Shown piece by piece: positions 1 through 60,145 of a DNA stretch of 64,000 nt (position 1 is its first letter; every line of letters begins with the position of its first letter). Below the pieces are notes generated by a model that searched no databases, was not told the DNA's origin, and saw nothing but the letters and a program-made list of their open reading frames with translations. Source of the DNA: Eledone cirrhosa (lineage: Eukaryota); NCBI GenBank assembly GCA_964016885.1, contig OZ024758.1:15872001-15936000 (forward strand), written 5' to 3'. Position numbers and translations under genes: made by a program.

Positions 1-475
1 ATCTCTCCCTCTATCTATCTAACTCTCCCATTCTCCCTCCTTCTATCTCTCTCTTCTCCCCCATCACTCTCTATCTATATATCACCATCTCTCTCTCTCG
101 ATTTCTCCCTATCTCTCTCTATCTACCCCCCTCCCCCTCTCTATATATCACTCTCAACCTTCGTTTATCGTCTGCTAAAACCGCATTGTCTATTACGTCA
201 GTCAGACATTAACCTATGGGCGAAAGCATTTATTGCAACTCATTCAGCCACCCGTTTCCCACCCTTTCCTAACAATTCCTCTCTGTTGATATATTTTAAT
301 CCCCTATTATTTTAATTTGTCTTCCTTTCCTCGGATATTCTATTTATTTCTATCACAGTGTGTGTGATTCTCAAACGGAATACATTTAGTTCCCAAAAGA
401 GAAATTTTAGTCGAAGGAGGAATTTAGGTGGATGGGGACCCATTTAATAAAGGAAAGAATATATATATATATATA

Positions 476-691
476 ACGATATTAACAAATGGAAACTATA
501 TTTATAAAACCATATTTATTTCATTATACATATTTCAAGGACACCAAGTTAAATTATGGTGTGCTTTCATCAGACAAAATATAATATAGATCAGTTTTAT
601 AAATAAATATTGACATACCCTTAAAAAAATGCAACCATTAGTGTTAGAAGCTCCCGGATAGTATAAAAATGTTTAAATTAAATATAACCTC

Positions 692-733
<42 letters not shown>

Positions 734-872
734 GAGGTTATATTTAATTTAAAAAAATTTATAACTGATATAAAGCACTCAACATGTTAGTGGAGTAAAT
801 ATACAATATATTAATAAATGGAAACTATATTTATAAAACCATATTTATTTTATTTTACATATTTCAAGGGCA
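476..872 (-). mobile_element. Non-autonomous Penelope-like (pLTR-type) repeat with a truncated second copy
   Basis: About 180 bp homologous to 45139-45320 and bounded by (TA)n. Partial copy at 805-872 stops inside hammerhead stem II. Further fragments near 27555-27600 and 31112-31144. Confidence 0.6.
517..581 (-). ncRNA. Type I hammerhead ribozyme (copy A) in a (TA)n-flanked PLE-derived repeat
   Basis: Reverse complement reads UAUUUUGU-CUGAUGA-AAGcACACCA-loop-UGGUGUcCUU-GAAA-UAUGUAUA/AUGAAAUA. The core and three stems are present, with an AUA cleavage triplet. Homologous copy at 45180-45244. Confidence 0.8.
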
Positions 873-887
873 ATATATATATATATA

Positions 888-1048
888 TAGCTTAAAATGG
901 AGTGAGAATAAGAAGAAATCAAGAACAGGGGGGTCCTCATCAGTTGTCTACTGGGGGTCTCGGATATTCCCCCAGAAGACAACTGATGAGGAAAACTCCA
1001 CCCCACCCCGTTCTTGCTTTCTTCTTATTCTCACTCCATTTTAAGCTA
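888..1048. repeat. Long imperfect inverted repeat (fold-back) abutting (TA)n
   Basis: TAGCTTAAAATGGAGTGAGAATAAGAAGAAA pairs with TTTCTTCTTATTCTCACTCCATTTTAAGCTA. Inner arms contain CTGATGAG and its complement. Confidence 0.85.
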
Positions 1049-5360: not shown

Positions 5361-6605
5361 AATATTACAAATAACATTATATTTAACTTTATATTACTTC
5401 AGAAAGTCCGAACCGTGAATAGAAATATTTGACCTAATTTCAAGCTAGATTAAACAGAAACAATATGGAAGAATGTAACATATATATATATAATCAAATT
5501 TTATTTTATCATGACGTCGTCCTTGTGGCTAAATTATTATTCAGTGTATATTTTTATATTTCTGTAAATAATTTAGCTAAATTATTTATGAAACCAAACA
5601 GTCAGTGTGTTTTACTATATTTTTCTGGCAATATTAGAACAACATGACCCTCCCCAAATATAACAATATGTTTCAACACACGATTTCATATTGTAAAAAA
5701 ACCCTTGCAAAACGAATCCATTAAACGGTCATTAAATGTTCACTGGTCCAAGGGAAGTAACTACAATAAAGACTAGTTTTCTTTATGTACAGGCACTGCC
5801 CAGACTGGGGTGTAGAGTCTGACACTCCCTCCCTTTCCTTTTATTGTTTGATTTTTTTTTGTTTTTCTTCTTTTCATTTTCTTTTTTATTCTCTTTAATA
5901 GTGTGTTTTTGTAATGTATAAAGATTGTATTCTTTCTCATATTTTTGTCGTGTCCTTACACACACAGTCGTATTCTTACACATATACTTACATACACACA
6001 CACCAACCACACAAACATCGATCGTTGCAAGAGTTTAAAGATAAAGAAAATATTTTATTACAGTTGCCTCCCTTGAATTTAAAAAATATTTATTATTTTA
6101 TTTTACAAAGCTGCTTATACAAAAATTAAAACACTAGTAACTAAAAAAAAAAGATAAAGAAGCAAGCAACGGAAGAAAAAGAGAGGTAGAGGGACAAGCA
6201 CTACATCCCAGTGTGAGTGGTGTTTACCTTGAATCGTCATTATTTGGCAGTATCGATAGAGGGTCGGACGCCATGCTTTGCAGCAAAGAGTTACGGCCCT
6301 TTATGGTCTGAGTTCAAATCCTGCCGAGGTTAGCTTTGCCTTTCATCCTCACAGGGGTCGATAAAATGAAGCACCAGTTACACACTGGGGTCGATTTAAT
6401 CGACTTCCTCCTCCCCCCAAAATTGCTGGCCTTGAGCCTAAATCAGAAACCATTATTATTATTTTCATGGCAGTATTGGTAGAGTGTTGGACAACATTCT
6501 TTGCGACATATAGTCCCGACCCTTTAGATTCTGAGTTCAAACTCTGCAAAGGTTAGCTTAGCAGACATGCAACCTCTAAAAACCCAAATAGGGAATACCA
6601 TGAAA

Positions 6606-6995
6606 AAAAGTGCCCAGAAATGGGGAGATTTTACATAATGAAAGCTATACCCATTTTCACAAAAAACAAGGAGACTAGGAGAAATGAGCCAAAACGGGGA
6701 GATGACCCCATCAGATGGGGAGAGTTGACAGGTCTGACCTTGCTTTTTGTCTTTATGAAGTTGATAAAATACAGTACCAGTGTTAGGTGATTTAATACAG
6801 TGATTTAAAAAGTGCCCAGAAATGGGGAGATTTTACATAATGAAAGCTATACCCATTTTCACAAAAAACAAGGAGACTAGGAGAAATGAGCCAAAACGGG
6901 GAGATGACCCCATCAGATGGGGAGAGTTGACAGGTCTGACCTTGCTTTTTGTCTTTATGAAGTTGATAAAATACAGTACCAGTGTTAGGTGATTT
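6606..6995. repeat. Recent direct tandem duplication (~190 bp x2) covering part of a DNA-transposon MITE
   Basis: 6606-6794 matches 6807-6995 by eye. The MITE is related to 21591-21770. Confidence 0.9.
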
Positions 6996-7598
6996 ATATT
7001 TCTGTAAATAATTTAGCTAAATTATTTATGAAACCAAACAGTCAAATATTCTATAATAAAGTAAGAAGCACAGGACTGCGTACGGTTTATAATTTTTTAT
7101 CCCATTAGTAAAATAAGTTGGATTACTTTGAATAAATAATGAATGAATATTACATAATTTATCTACTAAATTTCATGGCTGTTGATTAAATATATTTTGT
7201 TTATTTAAAGATTCACTTCTTTAAAATTTTTGAAATGTCAACACTTCCGGTGGCGATTGCTTAAATAAACATTAATTTTCTGTCACTAATTTTCTCCTAA
7301 TGCAGTTTATATATAATATCATCTTTTTTTTAATGTATCATGGATTACGTTACTGATTACATAAGACAGTGTAACACAGTCTTCGTTCAATTTCTGTGTA
7401 TATTGTCAATTACGATTTTATTTGATGTATCATATCTACATGTATATATACTTGCGTATAATATCAATATACACACTACACATGCTAGCAGAAAACCACC
7501 CGAAGGTTGGTTTTTCTGCTAGTAAATATAACCAAGTGTAGCGTGAAGATATGAAACTAAAGCAATTCAACTGATATTTTTACCAATTTCTTTTCTAG

Positions 7599-8649: not shown

Positions 8650-10321
8650 CGTTTCTGAATTTGTTTAACAAGATTCTTTATCTGAAAACGTGTGTTGAAA
8701 CCGATATTGTTATACTTTGGCATGTTGGTAGAGTACAGATGATTCTTTACTATCTTGAAGGTCTCGCCAGTGTTCTTTATCAGTTCCCCTATACTACGAG
8801 CTGTCTCACCTATGTACACTATATTCTTATCTCTACATTGTCCTTCAGTACATCTTATGCTATATACTACATTTCTAGTTTTACAGTTAATATGGGGTCT
8901 TAATTTACAGATTATACATTTCTTATCTATACAGGGGAGGTATTTGAAAAGGGTATGTATTGCTAATAAGTATTTTTATGGAGGTACCTGGTCTTTCTAC
9001 TATCTTAATATTGAGTTTATGTTTATCTAGGGCCCTTCTAAATTTGTAAGCTAATTCACCTCTAGGGGTTGTATCGGTGAATATTACACTCTGGTATTTA
9101 TTGCTATCATACCATCAGTTTATTCTATTAACCTTATTCCTAGTTCTTTCTATTCTATTCCAAAATTTGCTCCTATACAAGGGGCAGGTCCCATTTGTGT
9201 CATTATTTACCATTTTTTCCCATTTGGTTCTGGCTCCTCTATACACTCTGATTTTATCTCTCTGATTGTAACCAGAGAACTGCATACGGTGGATGAAGTG
9301 TTGTATGTGTCTCTCTAGTTCTTTGGGGTTGCACATGCGGGACACGTTTCTCATCACCCGTACCAAATCTGCAATCAGTATGTTGATTTTGGTACGGTCC
9401 GAAACAGCTGAGTTTCGGTGGATCAGATATTTGGAAGTCATGGGTTTGGCATAATGGGAATGGAGGATTTGATTTTTGTTGTTAATGGTATCTAACCAGA
9501 GCTCTGTGTCTAGTACAGGTAATCGATGGTTGGGGTGTTTGCTTGGGTAGTCTATAGTAACTCTAATACTCTGGTGGATGGAGTTAGCTATTTGCTGGAT
9601 GCTTTCCATTGTTTTTCTCTAATTCCTGACTGTTCTCTAGTGGGGGTGTTTTTACTACGATGTTTATATCATCAACGTAGCGGGAGTACATTATCAGGGT
9701 TAAGGGGTCTTCTAATTGTTCTTTAAGTTTAAGTCTACTGTCCCACCATACCATGAATAGGTAACTATGTCGCCTGCAATGCTAACACCAATGGCTGCTC
9801 CCTCCTCTTGGGCATATGTTTTTCCATTAAATTTGAACATATGTTCCTTAAGGGTTAATTTTATGCTGGCCCCCACCGCATGTGCAATCATTTTCTTTAG
9901 TTCATCGTGGTTTTCGGGGGTCCGTATGGCTCTGGTCCACCCGTTCCATCTATCTGTGTGGATTTTCTTGGCCATTGAAGTAATGGTAGGTGGTCTGCCT
10001 CTTGCTGGTCTTGTAGGGCACAGGTTGCTAAGGCCATATGTGTCTAGATAATTATTACTATAGGTAAGTTTAAGTAGGAGTCCCAGCTCACTGGTATCAA
10101 TCCCATGGAATTCAACATTGCTCTCACTGATCATTTCTACGCATTTCTCCACAGCAAAATCCACGTCAATAGATGGATACAGGGATGCAACATCCATACT
10201 ACCTATTATGCAGTTTGTTAGGTCCCTAGATCGGTTACTCTCGCCGATTCTGCTGAGGAGGTCCTCCGTGCTGTCACATACATCTGGGGACATTTCAATG
10301 ATGGGGCGTATATTTCAATGA
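8649..10321 (-). mobile_element. Decayed, 5'-truncated Penelope-like retroelement (RT + C-terminal GIY-YIG), Naiad/Neptune-type, in the tubulin intron
   Basis: Minus-strand translation across frameshifts gives [40 protein letters not shown] (~9668-9685), [18 protein letters not shown] and [12 protein letters not shown]...C...YIGETARS...EH. At least three frameshifts and one in-frame TGA. Confidence 0.92.
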
Positions 10322-10795: not shown

Positions 10796-11232
10796 ATCAT
10801 TATCATCATCACCATTTTATGCCTACTTTTCAATGCTTGCATGGGTTAGACAGGTCGTCCGCATTGAGAGACAAGACTTCCCAGGATTCACCACGCCATA
10901 CTTTGCTCCGATGGGACTGTAAATTTGGCCGGGGGTTGAGCAAAATTGTTTCCTTGGTCCTATTTGACAAGGTCCACCCCACTTGGCAAGTGAATGAGGC
11001 CTGGGATTTTGTCAATCAATCGAGCAAGAGAGCAATTTCTCCTTTGCGTTATACCAACTTTCCCAGAACAATCATAATGGGTATCTTTATATTAGAGGCT
11101 GTATTTTAACTCTTATTATTCTGTAACCATTTAGTAGAAAATATTTAAAAACAATCATTAATTCAAATATTTTTAGTATATTATAACCACATATCTAATT
11201 TTATTTTATTTTATTTTATTTTATTTTCACAG

Positions 11233-12365
11233 ACGAAGTTCGCACTGGCATCTATTCCAAATTATTTCATCCAGAGCAACTGATAACAGGAAAGGAGGAT
11301 GCTGCTAACAACTATGCCAGAGGACACTATACAATTGGTAAAGAAATTGTGGATTCAGTATTAGAAAGGATTCGCAAACTGTCTGACCAATGTAATGGTC
11401 TGCAAGGATTTTTGATCTTCCATAGCTTTGGGGGTGGCACAGGTAGTGGCTTTACTTCTTTATTAATGGAACGCCTCAGTGTAGATTATGGTAAGAAATC
11501 TAAATTAGAATTTTCTATTTACCCAGCTCCACAAATCGCTACTGCTGTTGTTGAGCCATATAACTCTATCCTGACAACCCATACTACACTGGAACATTCT
11601 GATTGTTCATTTATGGTTGATAACGAAGCCATTTATGACATATGTAGGCGTAATTTAGATATCGATCGCCCCAGTTATACCAATCTAAACCGGTTGATTG
11701 CTCAAGTGGTCAGCTCCATCACAGCTTCCTTACGGTTTGATGGAGCCCTTAATGTTGATTTAACTGAATTCCAAACCAACCTTGTACCTTATCCAAGAAT
11801 CCACTTCCCATTGGTAACTTATGCTCCAATCTTATCTGTTGAAAAAGCCAATCATGAACAATTGACAGTGTCAGAGATTACCAATTCCTGTTTTGAACCC
11901 GCCAACCAGATGGTTAAATGTGATCCACGTCATGGGAAGTACATGGCCTGTTGCATGTTGTACCGTGGAGATGTAGTACCAAAAGACGTCAATGCAGCTA
12001 TTGCTACAATTAAAACCAAAAGGTCGATACAGTTTGTTGATTGGTGTCCGACCGGATATAAAGTTGGGATCAACTATCAACCACCGACAGCAGTACCTGG
12101 TGGAGATTTAGCTAAAGTACCACGAGCTGTGTGCCTCTTAAGCAACACAACAGCCATTGCTGAAGCTTGGGCCAGACTAGATTTTAAGTTTGACCTCATG
12201 TATGCCAAACGTGCGTTTGTACATTGGTATGTTGGTGAGGGTATGGAAGAAGGTGAATTTTCAGAAGCACGAGAGGATCTGGCTTCTTTGGAAAAAGACT
12301 ATGAAGAAGTTGGATTTGATACAGAAGATATTTATCCCGAAGAAGACGAACTAGAAGAATATTAA
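11233..12365 (+). CDS. TUBA: Alpha-tubulin, last coding exon (DEVRTG...GGGTGSG...EEY*)
   Basis: Acceptor ttttcacag|AC is in phase with exon 2 (G|AC = Asp76). Contains [19 protein letters not shown] and C-terminal EEY. The spliced ORF is 452 aa including Met1. Confidence 0.97.
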
Positions 12366-20032: not shown

Positions 20033-20760
20033 CGTAGCAGTGGAGACTTCTGGTATCCTTGTCTCTAGAACCACCTCCCTACTCACCACCATGGCACGGA
20101 GTTGGTTTCCTGTAGCAGTGGAGACTTCTGGTGTCCTTAGCCCTAGGGCCACCTCCCTACTCACCACCATGGCACGGAGTTGGTTACCTGTAGCAGTGGA
20201 GACTTCTGGTGTCCTTAGCCCTAGGGCCACCTCCCTACTCACCACCATGGCACGGAGTTGGTTACCTGTAGCAGTGGAGACTTCTGGTGTCCTTAGCCCT
20301 AGGGCCACCTCCCTACTCACCACCATGGCACGGAGTTGGTTACCTGTAGCAGTGGAGACTTCTGGTGTCCTTAGCCCTAGGGCCACCTCCCTACTCACCA
20401 CCATCGGCACGGAGTTGGTTACCTGTAGCAGTGGAGACTTCTGGTGTCCTTAGCCCTAGGGCCACCTCCCTACTCACCACCATGGCACGGAGTTGGTTAC
20501 CTGTAGCAGTGGAGACTTCTGGTGTCCTTAGCCCTAGGGCCACCTCCCTACTCACCACCATCGGCACGGAGTTGGTTACCTGTAGCAGTGGAGACTTCTG
20601 GTGTCCTTAGCCCTAGGGCCACCTCCCTACCTCTACTCACCACCATCGGCACAGGGTTGGCTACCCGCAGTTGTGAGCCTCGCGAGCTGGAATGGCTCTA
20701 CCAGCGCGTCTCCCTCACCATCCTCCGGGGAAACGTCTTCTCTATTCTGTCAACCGGGCC
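20033..20760 (+). repeat. 78/79-bp tandem array (~8 units) derived from the 3' end of a CRE-like RLE non-LTR retrotransposon
   Basis: Unit encodes PVAVETSGVLSPRATSLLTT. The last unit runs into EPRELEWLYQRVSLTILRGNVFSIL. Single-copy relatives at about 15200-15310, 18010-18085 and 50520-50690. Confidence 0.8.
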
Positions 20761-35615: not shown

Positions 35616-35866
35616 AAAAAGCACCCAATCCACACTGTAAAGTGGTTGTGTAAGAGACATGGTAAAAAGGCTCCCAGTCCTCACTGTAAAGTGGTTGTGT
35701 AAGAGACATGGTAAAAAGGCTCCCAGTCCTCACTGTAAAGTGGTTGTGTAAGAGGCATGGTAAAAAGGCTCCCAGTCCACACTGTAAAGTGGTTGTGTAA
35801 GAGGCATGGTAAAAAGGCTCCCAGTCCACACTGTAAAGTGGTTGTGTAAGAGACATGGTAAAAAGG
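35616..35866. repeat. 49-bp minisatellite (~5 units) from a SINE internal module
   Basis: Unit AAAAAGGCTCCCAGTCCACACTGTAAAGTGGTTGTGTAAGAGACATGGT. Confidence 0.9.
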
Positions 35867-36022
35867 ATGGAGGCTTCAATGGATGTATACTTCAGCCTGA
35901 CCTCATGGGAGTGGCCGAGTGGGGTGGGGCATATTATATAAATGCTTCAGCTTTAACCTGTGGCCCGTGGGAAAACGGGCTTTCTGTATTACTGTATTGT
36001 TTATCTCCATTTGCCATTTCAG

Positions 36023-36327
36023 ATGTTGATGGCTGCAACTTTGAAGGAGATCTGGTGTCTATTATTAACCCTACCAGTTTCCCAGACAACCATTTGGTGT
36101 CAAAATACAAGTGGGCCCTTAATTATCAAGAAGCAGCTGTCTATCTCCAGGAAGGTGAAAACAATGATAAATATGATACACATCCTTCAAATTATGAAGC
36201 CCTTCCAGCTTACCAAATAGCCCACAACTACTGGTTTCACCTGCTTGATCTTGTTGCTTCGATTCTGCTCCTTTCATTAGCTCTGTTTGAGAGTCCCGCA
36301 GTTACTGACATGGCATTTCCTGTTGGG
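36023..36327 (+). CDS. TPCN1: TPC1 exon (N-terminus, IS1)
   Basis: tttcag|AT...WALNYQEAAVYLQEGENNDKYDTHP...FPVG|gtaggt. Confidence 0.93.
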
Positions 36328-36400
36328 GTAGGTAGCTTTATTTTTCTAGTCCTTTCATTACCCGTTTATTATCGCCACCTATTTTTTTTTTTTTTTTTGT

Positions 36401-37992
36401 CATGACACCTACAGAACCACTTTGTGGACTGGGTGCCTTTTGTTGTGACACCTACATGACCATTTTACAGTGAATACCAGGTGCTTTTTGTTGTGACACC
36501 TACACTACTGCTTTACAGTGTGGACTTGGTGCTTTTTGTCGTGACACCTACACTACCACTTCACAGTGTGGACTGGGTGCTTTTTGTCATGACACCTACA
36601 AGACTACTTTACAGTGGGGGCTGGGTGATTTTTGTTGTGACACCTACAAGACTACTTTACAGTGGGGGCTGGGTGCTTTTTGTCGTGACACCTACACTAC
36701 CACTTCACAGTGTGGACTGGGTGCTTTTTGTCATGACACCTACATGACCACTTTACAGTGGGGGCTGGGTGCTTTTTGTTGTGACACCTACACTACTGCT
36801 TTACAGTGTGGATTTGGTGCTTTTTGTCATGACACCTACAAGACTACTTTACAGAGGGGGCTGGGTGCTTTTTGTTATGACACCTACTTTACAGTGTGGA
36901 TTTGGTGCTTTTTGTCATGACACCTACAGAACCACTTTGTGGACTGGGTGCCTTTTGTTGTGACACCTACATGACCATTTTACAGTGAATACCAGGTGCT
37001 TTTTGTTGTGACACCTACACTACTGCTTTACAGTGTGGACTTGGTGCTTTTTGTCGTGACACCTACACTACCACTTCACAGTGTGGACTGGGTGCTTTTT
37101 GTCGTGACACCTACACTACCACTTCACAGTGTGGACTGGGTGCTTTTTGTCATGACACCTACAAGACTACTTTACAGTGGGGGCTGGGTGCTTTTTGTCG
37201 TGACACCTACACTACCACTTCACAGTGTGGACTGGGTGCTTTTTGTCGTGACACCTACATGACCATTTTACAGTGAATACTGGGTGCCTTTTGTCATGAC
37301 ACCTACATGACCATTTTACAGTGAATACCAGGTGCTTTTTGTTGTGACACCTACACTACTGCTTTACAGTGTGGACTTGGTGCTTTTTGTCGTGACACCT
37401 ACACTACCACTTCACAGTGTGGACTGGGTGCTTTTTGTCGTGACACCTACACTACCACTTCACAGTGTGGACTGGGTGCTTTTTGTCATGACAGCTACAA
37501 GACTACTTTACAGTGGGGGCTGGGTGATTTTTGTTGTGACACCTACAAGACTACTTTACAGTGGGGGCTGGGTGCTTTTTGTCGTGACACCTACACTACC
37601 ACTTCACAGTGTGGACTGGGTGCTTTTTGTCATGACACCTACATGACCACTTTACAGTGGGGGCTAGGTGCTTTTTGTTGTGACACCTACACTACTGCTT
37701 TACAGTGTGGATTTGGTGCTTTTTGTCATGACACCTACAAGACTACTTTACAGAGGGGGCTGGGTGCTTTTTGTTATGACACCTACTTTACAGTGTGGAT
37801 TTGGTGCTTTTTATCATGACACCTACAAGACTACTTTACAGAGGGGGCTGGGTGCTTTTTGTTGTGACATCTACACTACTGCTTTACAGTGTGGATTTGG
37901 TGCTTTTTGTCATGATGCCTACACAACCACTTTACAGTGTGGACTTGGTGCTTTTTGTCATGACACCTACATGACCACTTTACAGTGTGCAC
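36401..37992. repeat. 48-bp minisatellite (~33 units) with a ~515-bp higher-order duplication
   Basis: Unit GTGCTTTTTGTCGTGACACCTACACTACCACTTCACAGTGTGGACTGG. The block starting at 36401 recurs at 36916. Confidence 0.92.
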
Positions 37993-38124
37993 TGGAAACT
38001 TCACTGGATGTATGCTTCAGCCTGCCCTCATGGGAGTGGGTGAGTGGGGTGGTGTATTAATATAAATATTAATACAATATCTACATTTAAGATATCTAAT
38101 ATTCAGTTTATATCTCATTTTCAG

Positions 38125-44972: not shown

Positions 44973-45072
44973 CTACCCTGATGTCATGATGCCTGCTTAT
45001 AATGAATCACGGTTTTTTGTTGCATTCTTTATTGTCTACCTCAGTCTGGAATTATTTTTCCTCATGAACCTG
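44973..45072 (+). CDS. TPCN1: TPC1 exon (filter I, IS6)
   Basis: tag|(N)YPDVMMPAYNESRFFVAFFIVYLSLELFFLMNL|gtaagt. Confidence 0.95.
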
Positions 45073-45179
45073 GTAAGTACATCCTTGTTATGTTAATAGT
45101 GTGTCGTTAAATATGTGTATATATATATATATATATATACGATATTAACAAATGGAAACTATATTTATAAAACCATATC

Positions 45180-45244
45180 TATTTTATTATACATATTTCA
45201 AGGATACCATGTTAAATTATGGTATGCTTTCATCAGACAAAATA
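45180..45244 (-). ncRNA. Type I hammerhead ribozyme (copy B, same family as A)
   Basis: UAUUUUGU-CUGAUGA-AAGcAUACCAU-loop-AUGGUAUcCUU-GAAA-UAUGUAUA/AUAAAAUA. Compensatory change in stem II relative to copy A. Confidence 0.85.
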
Positions 45245-45317
45245 CAATATATACCAGTTTTATAAATAAATATTGACATACCCTTTCAAAATGCAACCGT
45301 TACTTTTGGAAGACATC

Positions 45318-45361
<44 letters not shown>

Positions 45362-45365
<4 letters not shown>

Positions 45366-45689
45366 GGAGGTGAGTTTTATTGTAGCACACTAGAGCAATG
45401 CAAATATCGGATAAGTAGCACTCTACAGTTTGTAGGACTGGAGTATAAATAATATAAGATCAAAAGATGGTTAAAAGAGTTCCAAGTATTTTATTATGCT
45501 CATTTCAAAAACAAATATCATCATGGGATGATATCTGCGTTTTCATCAGATAAAATAGGGAAACATGATATGAAGGTTAAAAAACACTTGTGAATAAGTG
45601 AAGTTTTAAATCAACATATCATATGTTGATTTGTTTTTGAAATGAGCATAATAAAATACTTGGAACTCTTTTAACCATCTTTTGATCTT

Positions 45690-45694
<5 letters not shown>
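45362..45694 (-). mobile_element. Non-autonomous PLE-type element with an inverted partial pLTR, between (TA)n tracts
   Basis: 45451-45516 is the reverse complement of 45629-45694. 45362-45475 is homologous to 23751-23865. Confidence 0.7.
45487..45557 (-). ncRNA. Type I hammerhead ribozyme (copy C, second family)
   Basis: UAUUUUAU-CUGAUGA-AAAcGCAGAUAUCAUC-ccau-GAUGAUAUUUGUuUUU-GAAA-UGAGCAUA/AUAAAAUA. Perfect 8-bp stem I, long stem II and short stem III. Confidence 0.88.
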
Positions 45695-45725
<31 letters not shown>

Positions 45726-45819
45726 TATATATATATATACTCTCTCACACACATACATATATATGTGTGTGTGTGTGTGTGTATATGTATGTGTGTGTGT
45801 GTATATATGTGTGTGTGTG

Positions 45820-45850
<31 letters not shown>

Positions 45851-47509
45851 ATGTGTGTGTGTGTGTGTATACGTGTGTGTGTATATATGTGTGTGTGTAT
45901 ATATGTGTGTGTGTGTATATATATATATAATATGTGTGTGTGTATATATATATATAATATGTGTGTGTGTGTGTATATATATATATGTGTGCATATATAT
46001 ATATATATATATTATATATGTATATTTATGTATGTGTGTGTTTGTGTGTGTGTGTTTGGGTGAGTGGTTAGAGAATTGGATTCACAATCTTGAGGTTGTG
46101 AGTTCGATTCCTGGACCGGGCGATGCGTTATGTCCTTGAGCAAGACACTTTATTTCACGTTGCTCCTTCTACCTGGAGTTGCGCCCGATAGATAGTATTA
46201 GCAACTGGAAAGACTGACTAAAACATTGTTTCCTAGTTCCGATTTGATGAAAGTCGATCGATCCTTTTATATATACATGTATATACATGTATATACATGG
46301 CTTAGTGGTTAGTGCATTGGCCTTGCAATCGAAAGGTTGTGAGTTCTATTCTCAGACCGGGTGATGTGTTGTTTCCTTGAGCAAGACACTTTATTTCACA
46401 TTGCTCCAGTTTACTCAGCTGTAGAAATGAGATGATAGGGTCTGGGGTCCCTATCATTCCACTGTAAAATGGTCGTGGAGGTGCCACAGCAAAAAAGCAC
46501 CCAGCACTCACTGTAAATGAGGTTGGTGTTAGGAAGGGCATCCAGCTGTAGAAATCAAGCCAGAATCAGTTCCCGTCCCACCCTTGCAAGCAGGGAAAAG
46601 CAGACGTAAAATGATGATGATGATGATGATATAACCCATGCTAGGGTGGAAGGTGGATGTTAAACAACGATGATCACGATGATCACGATGATATATATAT
46701 AGCTTGATTTACGTTTTTGTAACATTGTCATTAATAGATAATTGTTTCTACTTTTTGGCACAAGGCCAGCAATTATCCCAGTGTATTACTGGTACTTTAT
46801 TTTATCGACCCCGTAAGGATGAAAGGCAAAGTTAACCTCGGCGAGATTTGAACTCAGAATGGCAAGGGCCGTAACTCTATGCGTCAAAGCATGGCGTCCG
46901 ACCCTCTACCGATACAGCCATCCACCGCCCTCACGGTTATATAATAATAATAATAATAATAATAATTGTTTCTACTTTTGGCACAAGGCCAGCAATTATA
47001 CCAGTGTATTACTGGTACTTTATTTTATCGACCCCGTAAGGATGAAAGGCAAAGCTAACCTCGGCGGGATTCGAACTCAGAATGGCAAGGGCCGTAACTC
47101 TATGCGTCAAAGCATGGTGTCCGACTCTAATGAATGTATGTAATTTGGATAAGCTTGATATAAACATGTAGCAGCAATAATTGTTTCTACTTTAGGCACA
47201 AGGCCAGCAATTACCCAGTGCATTACTGGTACTTTGTTTTATCGACCCCGTAAGGATGAAAGGCAAAGTCAACCTCGGCGGGATTTGAACTCAGATCGTA
47301 AAGGGACGTAACTATGCTGGAAAGCATGGCGTCCGACATGTAGCAGCAATAATGAGAGGAATGGTGAATTGTTTAACAGTAAAAACTGATAAGGGTGACA
47401 TTGAGAAGTAGTGGCTTAATGTGTTGTAATATAGAAACATTAGTGAAATATAGGGATTAGCTAGAGTTGGTGTACTTTAAGCTGACTGTATTATCTGTTG
47501 CTATTATAT

Positions 47510-53043: not shown

Positions 53044-54073
53044 GTAAGTTGATTGATTTCTTTCATCATCATCATCATTTCATTTTACGTCTGCTTTTTC
53101 CCTGCTTGCAAGGGTGGGACGGGAACTGATTCTGGCTTGATTTCTACAGCTGGATGCCCTTCCTAACACCAACCCCATTTACAGTGAGTGCTGGGGCTTT
53201 TTTACCATGGCACCTCCACGACCACTTTGCAGTGGAATGATAGGGACCGCAGTCCCTATCATCTCATTTCTACAGCTGAGTAAACTGGAGCAATGTGAAA
53301 TAAAGTGTCTTGCTCAGAGAAACAACACATCACTCAGTCTGAGAATTGAACTCACAGCCTTTCGATTGCAAGCCCAATGCTCTAACCACTAAGCCATGTG
53401 CCTCCATGCTCAGTTATGTAGGTAAAAGGAGCGTGAGTTTGCTTCATGGTCATAAATAATAGGTTAAATTCTCAAGCCTAGTGTTATACTGTTTCATTGA
53501 GCAAGGCCTTTCATTTCACGTTGCTCAAATCTAATCAGCTTAAAATAACTGAAGCGGACAGGCCTCCTCACATTACTGAACAGTTATTTACATTTGCGAG
53601 ATGTGGATTTAAACCATCGACAGGTGCAGGTCATCATTCTAAGTTCAAATTGTGCTTTATCAATATTAATTCCTTACAAACAGTACAATCTATTGTCTTT
53701 CGTCTTTTTAGTCCAGAAATGGTGGATTGGTAGAATTGTGAAACAGTTGAACTATATACTTCGGTTTCATAACAGGTTGATGGTTCTTCTGGGTGGATTG
53801 TTGGCCTTCCTCAGAATAGTTGGATGATGGGGCTGCCGCCTTGGTGGCGAGCCGACACGCTGCGGGTCACTGTTGGTCTGGAACCTCCCACTTTTACAAG
53901 AAGGGGTTAAAAGGGTTGGCATTATGAATGACATCCGGCTGTAAAACATTCACAAAATATTCTGTCCGACCCATGCCAACATGGAAAATTTGATGTAAAA
54001 ATGATGATGATGTTTTCTATATTTTACTTCTTCATTTATTGTATTTCATTCAAGAGATTTTTGTATTTTATAG

Positions 54074-59554: not shown

Positions 59555-60145
59555 CACTTTACAGAGTGTACTGGGTGCATTTTATCATGGCATCAGTGCT
59601 ACTTCTTTACAGGGTGTACTGGGTGTTTTTATCATGGCATCAGTGCTACCTCTTTACAGAATGTACTGGGTGCATTTTTATCATAGCATCAGTGCTACCT
59701 CTTTACAGAGTGTACTGGGCGTATTTTATCATAACATCAGTGCCACCTCTTTACAGAGTGTACTGGATGTATTTTATCATAGCATCAGTGCCACTTCTTT
59801 ACAGAGTATACTGGGTGTATTTTATCTTGGAATCAGTGCTACCTCTTTTAAGAGTGTACTGGATATATTTTATCTTGGCCTCAGTGCTACCTCTTTACAG
59901 AGTGACCTGGGTGTATTTTATCATAGCATCAGTGCTACCTCTTTACAGAGTGTACTGGGTGCATTTTTATCATAGCATCAGTGCTACCTCTTTACAGAGT
60001 GTACTGGGTGCATTTTATCTTGGCCTCAGTGCTACCTCTTTACAGAGTGTACTGGGTGTATTTTATCTTGGCATCAGTGCCACCTCTTTACAGAGTGTAC
60101 TGGATGTATTTTATCATAGCATCAGTGCCACTCTTTACAGAGTGC
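59555..60145. repeat. 48-bp minisatellite (~12 units), SINE-module derived
   Basis: Unit CTCTTTACAGAGTGTACTGGGTGTATTTTATCATAGCATCAGTGCTAC. Confidence 0.9.

Follow-up and report, generated by a model that had tools for sequence, protein, structure and literature searches.

The closest described relatives of the element analysed here are the Penelope-like elements (PLEs) of the Hydra clade (Craig et al. 2021, PMC8557442; Penelope-13_HM, Hydra-1_Obim), which share with it a reverse transcriptase (RT) and, behind it at the C-terminus, a GIY-YIG endonuclease (EN), the DKT and CxCX5C motifs, CxxC and CxH motifs near the end of the EN, a (TA)n target and a 3' type I hammerhead. Among the 25 Hydra-clade families listed there, 12 have A at the cleavage site and many are without G-C at the base of stem II, and the entry for Penelope-13_HM gives an inverted copy that is truncated at its 5' end, with hammerheads on both strands. 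An inverted 5'-truncated copy with a one-sided tail has accordingly been published already (PMC8557442, including its File S1; PMC3846280), and opposite-strand hammerheads 100-700 bp apart are given in PMC4209133. The dimeric PLE hammerheads (Cervera and de la Pena 2014, PMC4209133) likewise lie in pLTRs, have a short palindromic helix III and depend on dimers; PLE hammerheads with a very short helix III have been reported to be active only as dimers, and weakly. Frangieh et al. 2024 (PMC11167929) describe PAc, a Poseidon element of Anolis, whose tail is set by two internal sites of RT initiation; its targets are AT-rich, the template is unprocessed RNA, both target strands are cut and extended, and hammerhead cleavage is not required for insertion in vitro. 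PAc belongs to another clade and its hammerhead overlaps the ORF start, whereas ours lies upstream of the tail. The non-LTR retrozymes (PMC7229834; bioRxiv 10.64898/2026.07.22.740005) also contain high-copy, pLTR-related animal type I hammerheads, but they form short head-to-tail tandems (PMC7229834), unlike the dispersed head-to-head truncation product of an ORF-bearing element described below.

The stretch analysed is a 64-kb window of Eledone cirrhosa DNA, and the insertion in question occupies positions 45363-45696. We consider it very probable that this is a 5'-truncated Hydra-clade PLE insertion in (TA)n, and that the inverted arm, rather than an evolved regulator, is most likely another cDNA, shorter than the first and linked to it head-to-head. 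Positions called 'unit' run along the minus strand, with 45621 as unit 1. The features are as follows.

44973..45072, plus strand: exon of the host two-pore calcium channel gene, with AG/GT borders and a TPC1 match (E=4.3e-7)
45130..45320, minus strand: solitary pLTR of sister family B, lacking a tail but with a hammerhead (C3 45236, A17 45188)
45321..45362, no strand: (TA)n target on the tailed side, from the tandem-repeat listing
45363..45619, minus strand: main arm, the 3' end of a Hydra-clade PLE (pLTR unit 3-173 plus tail), 5'-truncated at the family hotspot
45363..45448, minus strand: 86-nt PLE tail, in the main arm only; tandem copies (L063, L107, L111) continue into the 5' end of the next unit
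45487..45557, minus strand: predicted type I hammerhead motif C, from sequence scan and folding
45496..45503, minus strand: helix III octamer AUGAGCAU, in which A at 45500 makes a rare variant of the self-complementary family form AUGCGCAU
45608..45632, no strand: 12-bp palindrome around 45620, the head-to-head arm junction, from the sequence
45621..45696, plus strand: second copy, inverted, 5'-truncated and tail-less, without the CUGAUGA core (unit 3-14 joined through ATTT to unit 106-173)
45697..46033, no strand: (TA)n/(TG)n microsatellite next to the tail-less arm, from the tandem-repeat listing

The whole insertion corresponds to the 3' end of the element, that is, pLTR and 86-nt tail, and copies of the main arm are 96-98% identical genome-wide. 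The perfect 66-bp inverted copy of the 3' half of the hammerhead that the first-pass annotation had pointed out was recovered exactly: 45451-45516 and 45629-45694 are reverse complements at 66 of 66 positions, or 68 counting the flanking TA. That description is corrected in three respects, the third of which concerns helix III and is given below. First, the element extends 86 nt past the partner of the arm, to 45363. Second, the inverted arm opens with 12 inverted nucleotides of the pLTR start (45621-45632), followed by a 4-nt ATTT microhomology joint; because unit 3-14 is joined there to unit 106-173, the catalytic core has been lost from this arm. The same ATTT joint is present in L011 and L015, which come from more distant subfamilies.

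Motif C has the parts of a type I hammerhead, namely the CUGANGA and GAAA core, an NUH triplet, three helices and an open stem I. Stem I comprises 8 bp (45557-45550/45494-45487, minus strand), the core reads CUGAUGA at 45549-45543 and GAAA at 45506-45503 (both minus strand), and C3 and A17 fall at 45549 and 45495. Stem II has 15 pairs (45542-45527/45522-45507, minus strand), with A-U at 10.1-11.1 and a C.U mismatch at position 4 (45539/45510); the triplet is A-U-A, after whose last letter, A17, the cut is predicted, and helix III consists of only 2 bp. In isolation, the motif is predicted to fold cleanly (stem I pairing 0.89-0.99). The scanner found three hammerheads in the window, whereas all 50 Markov-resampled windows were free of them. 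The other two, with C3 at 45236 (family B) and at 573 (family A), have the A-U pair, a C.C mismatch at position 4, the AUA triplet and a U/A stem I, so the features said at first to be common to the three motifs are indeed common to them. Rfam gave no hammerhead match at E<=1 over the whole window or at E<=10 over 45130-45690, and, the tRNA match given further below aside, its matches were microsatellite-driven miRNA only. Family A is represented at 470-900 (minus strand) by a hammerhead pLTR in which a short inverted tail piece faces the tail of another copy across (AT)18 (695-730); a hairpin of 138-bp scale lies near it, at about 899-1037.

Helix III deserves separate consideration. In the family it is self-complementary: the AUGCGCAU form has 16,733 exact matches genome-wide, the AUGAGCAU form 66, and the rare variant was found in 5 of 247 sampled arms. 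The tandem A.G breaks the palindrome in the 45496..45503 copy, and the predicted self-duplex is weakened from -10.5 kcal/mol for AUGCGCAU to -2.6 kcal/mol for AUGAGCAU. The letter at 45500 is the minority letter in three further contig runs too. In the families with AUAUGUAU and AUAUAUAU the predicted octamer duplexes are equally weak (-2.2 and -3.2), and, given such weak octamers elsewhere, the AUGAGCAU change is predicted to lower activity without excluding it. Calling the hammerhead intact was therefore an overstatement: no part of the core is missing, yet the fold departs from the norm of the family, and a rare stem III change disrupts the palindrome through which the family would dimerize.

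Truncated copies of this element end number in the tens of thousands; a 26-nt piece of it has 7,234 exact matches in the 3.0-Gb assembly, and longer copies reveal to what it belongs. A search with the arm-less unit gave 29 other loci, among which 14 share an upstream body encoding RT and GIY-YIG endonuclease. The two domains follow in this order, EN at the C-terminus, in L061 and L063; the copies examined are interrupted, and no intact ORF was seen among the longer ones. DKT replaces DKG (HSDKTNN in L055, L107, L111, L132, L153 and L155; HSDKTNK in L205), and the EN region has CNCPVRTKC as the CxCX5C linker, CNLC or CNIC as CxxC, and CLH as CxH; by eye, no CCHH motif was seen in the long copies. 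The flanks of the sampled loci are (TA)n. Two deviations from the Hydra clade (PMC8557442) are noted. First, the RWK position reads RRLRWIA in six long copies, with RW retained and K replaced by I; second, the unit is about 4 kb, the tandem period being ~4.0 kb in L063 and ~3.7 kb in L106/L107, which exceeds the Hydra norm of <3 kb, a length that is a tendency and not a rule in the part of PMC8557442 concerned. The 86-nt tail is also longer than the 30-40 nt given for PLEs in general, and the hammerhead sequence is unlike that of Hydra-1_Obim. Judged by the motifs in section 11 of that paper, with published proteins compared by eye, the element is very probably a Hydra-clade PLE, a confidence held jointly with the account of the insertion given above. 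Pfam gave no match for the four window fragments or for two fragments of family C, and a protein search restricted to longer proteins returned two unnamed matches. For relatives in other animals, a metagenome scan gave 197 pattern matches, of which none was confirmed.

The architecture is that of PLE insertions, with partial tandems, an inverted 5'-truncated copy and a tail on one side. L063 holds a direct partial tandem of ~4 kb in which the tail runs into the 5' end of the next unit, and three of six longer stretches have a 5' inverted tail-less copy (1,300, 367 and 120 nt). With an RT/EN body in the longer copies and abutting arms common, the proposal of a PLE insertion carrying an inverted partial pLTR was borne out. 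Three other assignments were dropped: a Nematis label, as the motifs fit the Hydra-clade definition instead; the degraded RT/EN element at 8658-10314 as the source, as the scanner found no hammerhead there; and a non-LTR retrozyme, as the copies are dispersed head-to-head and contiguous with an RT/EN body.

It had also been proposed that the A-U pair at the base of stem II and the C mismatch at position 4 define a distinct hammerhead subtype, and these two characters fared differently. A relaxed motif pattern has 56,683 matches genome-wide (reversed control 0), of which 32,030 have AA/UU at the stem II base and 3,864 have G10.1-C11.1 (reversed controls 0). We compared 258 distinct motifs, from loci enriched for families C and B, by anchored pair counts; they form seven clusters with at least four members, in which 10.1-11.1 is A-U in three, G-C in three and G.U in one, and A.C also occurs among sister families. 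A midpoint-rooted tree of 11 endonuclease rows places one G-C family inside the C group and a second as sister of the B group, each split with support of 100/99 and the G-C row L190 being long-branched; since A-U and G-C families are interleaved, A-U is no mark of lineage. The pair, like A17, is moreover already on record for PLE hammerheads: by our count, 3 of the 56 motifs in Fig. S3 of PMC4209133 have A10.1-U11.1, and the D. willistoni motif there combines it with AUA, as in motif C. Non-G-C stem II bases appear in many Hydra rows of File S2 of PMC8557442, and U.U is tolerated at 10.1-11.1 according to PMC3088659. The A-U pair thus does not hold as a subtype mark.

The C at position 4, by contrast with the pairs around it, is conserved as a mismatch across families, standing opposite U, C or A in all seven clusters with at least four members. 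It is the one unusual feature of the insertion. Position 4 is paired in 3% of 162 motifs, whereas positions 1-3 and 5-7 are paired in 94-98% with changes on both sides; genome-wide, 184 motifs have G opposite the C, against 58,470 with some other base. As the copies are not independent, the weight of this result lies on the seven clusters, and the constancy of stem I, of the helix III ends and of AUA is built in, being imposed by the search patterns. That the mismatch is kept while neighbouring pairs covary and the ENs are only 38-63% identical points, at the level of sequence, to a structural role, which would be notable in a ribozyme class thought to be without tertiary contacts; by analogy with known stem II/stem I contacts (PMC3088659), the C may have such a tertiary role. 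The combination of 3 bp, a C.N mismatch and a long distal stem II is absent among the Hydra rows of File S2 of PMC8557442. Compared with the motifs of PMC4209133, ours have no extra base between A9 and 10.1, an 8-bp A/U stem I, the conserved position-4 mismatch and a stem II of up to 15 bp. In the portions of the literature searched, which did not extend to Lunse et al. 2017, a possible source, we found no earlier account of octopus pLTR hammerheads that have a mismatch at position 4 or are locked by an antisense arm. A sister family (L165, L168-L170, L189, L191) has a compact 20-nt stem II with a G-C base, a C.A mismatch and a 4-bp hairpin, and L090 contains a divergent hammerhead with a CUGAAGA core, a 41-nt stem II and U.C, not C.N, at position 4.

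To place the locus among its relatives, the 7,234 seed matches were ordered along contig C1 and the leading 100 taken; the sample is biased to copies retaining the 26-mer, and with a chaining heuristic it gave 85 insertions, 83 of them resolved. An abutting inverted arm is present in 52 of the 83 (51 of 82 if L230, counted twice, is corrected), and these 52 show 46 different junction pairs; in 40 of them a tailed arm is paired with a tail-less one. Most arms end at two fixed 3' ends ~86 nt apart (unit ~173 and ~259), each with TA-like microhomology to the target; BLAST ends at unit 177/178 overshoot into TA, and the true match at our locus stops at unit 173. At the other side, 36 of 135 arm 5' ends fall at unit 0-5, against 3 at unit 124-131, where the cut site lies. 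This suggests that the RNA starts, or has a strong stop, at unit 3 and that the template was not cleaved. The arms of L101 and L249 start at unit 127, by the predicted cut; they are possibly rare copies of cleaved RNA or the result of microhomology.

The formation of the insertion is reconstructed by analogy with PAc (PMC11167929). The element endonuclease would nick both strands of a TA tract, and reverse transcription would start internally at two sites (unit ~259 and ~173) on uncleaved RNA. Two cDNAs, one per target end, would then run toward the RNA 5' end, with unit 3 as the likely start or strong stop, and be joined head-to-head through short homologies. At our locus unit 15-109 would be missing from one arm owing to a template jump at ATTT or to a deletion there afterwards. 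Tandem transcripts of source elements are probably cleaved by the hammerhead acting as a helix-III dimer, and stem I may serve as a docking site for the conserved unpaired C10.4.

The most serious competitor differs from two primings only in the origin of the arm. It holds that the palindrome at the pLTR start let the first cDNA fold back on itself, after which it was copied, or, as a variant, that a full palindrome formed first, lost unit 15-109 later and was homogenised by conversion. Self-priming has been proposed in PMC3846280; a 12-bp palindrome lies at the junction, the class seen most often is that of full palindromes with their centre at unit 2-3, and L011 and L015 carry the identical ATTT joint. 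Furthermore, both arms at the locus share the rare stem III variant, a pairing seen twice among the 66 matches, so that fold-back copying or gene conversion fits at least as well as two primings here. Minority letters common to both arms also count against two primings, with 1.0 per short-gap pair and 0.32 per long-gap pair. On the other hand, in L202, L248 and L100 a long tail-less arm is combined with a short tailed arm, neither nested in the other; a simple fold-back cannot make such pairs and two primings are needed. Long inverted arms, too, have diverged like any two copies (95-98%). Taken jointly, the self-priming variants have a real chance of being right, though we lean against them, and they can coexist with two primings, which we prefer.

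A more speculative proposal joins both lines of evidence, and as a whole we regard it as tentative and rather unlikely to hold: the Hydra-clade radiation of this genome would carry an undescribed type I architecture in which a never-paired C, located 3 bp up stem II, contacts an A/U-rich stem I and speeds dimeric cleavage, and its two-arm insertions, numbering tens of thousands, would record twin internal priming on uncleaved RNA with its 5' end at unit 3. The origin of PLE inverted repeats is stated to be open in the relevant part of PMC8557442, a question for which this family provides junctions by the thousand, with both 3' ends fixed, 5' ends concentrated at a hotspot and hardly any signal at the cut site.

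The claim that the arm is a built-in antisense lock has to be divided. According to the folding, the arm-less unit has stem I pairing of ~0.3 and the hammerhead fold costs 0.7 kcal/mol, whereas inclusion of the arm brings stem I pairing to 0.00 and raises the cost of the hammerhead fold to 32.5 kcal/mol. The part of the claim that stands is hence the predicted loss of the fold in read-through RNA; that the lock is built in or evolved is not supported. A lock selected against the cutting of read-through transcripts, either designed into the element or kept by the host on intronic copies, would profit from this 32.5 kcal/mol penalty and from the arm being transcribed first, and 29 of the 75 sampled insertions with a complete hammerhead are covered by an antisense arm of at least 20 nt (23 have two complete hammerheads). 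The remaining 46 of 75 are without antisense cover, arm length and junction differ from copy to copy, and the long ORF-bearing copies have variable or absent arms. Coverage, where it exists, is automatic, as nearly all arms end at unit ~173 or ~259, directly downstream of the ribozyme, and the host transcript is of the opposite strand, without a ribozyme core. The perfection of the match does not set the locus apart either: of the 76 head-to-head pairs taken from all loci sampled, 21 have no difference between the arms over 64 columns (with junction alignment noise in some rows, that of our locus included), so a perfect arm match is common. We consider a selected lock very unlikely; most likely, PLE insertion produces such an inverted arm as a routine side product, and the lock in itself matters little, since the published insertion pattern explains it.

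The weakest reading, a MITE-like or retrozyme-like non-autonomous unit of fixed form spreading with its inverted repeats, can point to the 28 loci that matched most of the two-arm query in the first search, but it is barely credible, as those loci differ in junctions and in which arm is tailed, short tandem arrays did not turn up, longer copies are contiguous with an RT/EN body, and a MITE with constant TIRs and interior was rejected on the 46 junction pairs in 52 two-arm insertions.

Upstream of the exon listed above, a further two-pore channel exon lies at 36031-36402 (plus strand, E=1.1e-21), and the insertions of families B and C follow shortly after the splice donor of the exon at 44973..45072 on the plus strand, which makes their ribozymes antisense to the host transcript. 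The copy at 45363-45696 is probably silent: besides its antisense orientation to the host gene, it is without a sense partner from its own family, its helix III is weakened, and in read-through RNA it would form a 66-bp helix. The EN of family B is 43-47% identical to that of family C and the element layout is alike; ends of the two families adjoin across one TA tract (45130-45362, and also in L089 and L094), a case of repeated insertion into the same microsatellite. The intron RNA of the two-pore channel would contain the 66-bp hairpin ~380 nt past the splice donor (plus-strand fold -120.9 kcal/mol), a possible substrate for editing or small RNAs. As a side effect of such insertions, many long perfect hairpins lie within introns, on both strands.

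The window holds several further features. The degraded Penelope-like RT and GIY-YIG element at 8658-10314 (minus strand) has CxxC and CCHH-type motifs and (TA)n cuts on both sides, and we take it to be Neptune- or Nematis-like; L062 contains an open frame of 661 residues from this family that gave weak Pfam matches to RVT_1 and GIY-YIG. At 11199-12365 (plus strand) a 388-residue open frame reads, by eye, as an alpha-tubulin exon, and at 53335-53398 (minus strand) there is a partial tRNA match (33 bits, above the Rfam gathering score), possibly a SINE head. Tandem arrays lie at 6605-6996, 20034-20630, 35616-37995 and 59557-60144, with units of 202 nt (a 100% identical pair), 78 nt and 48-49 nt.
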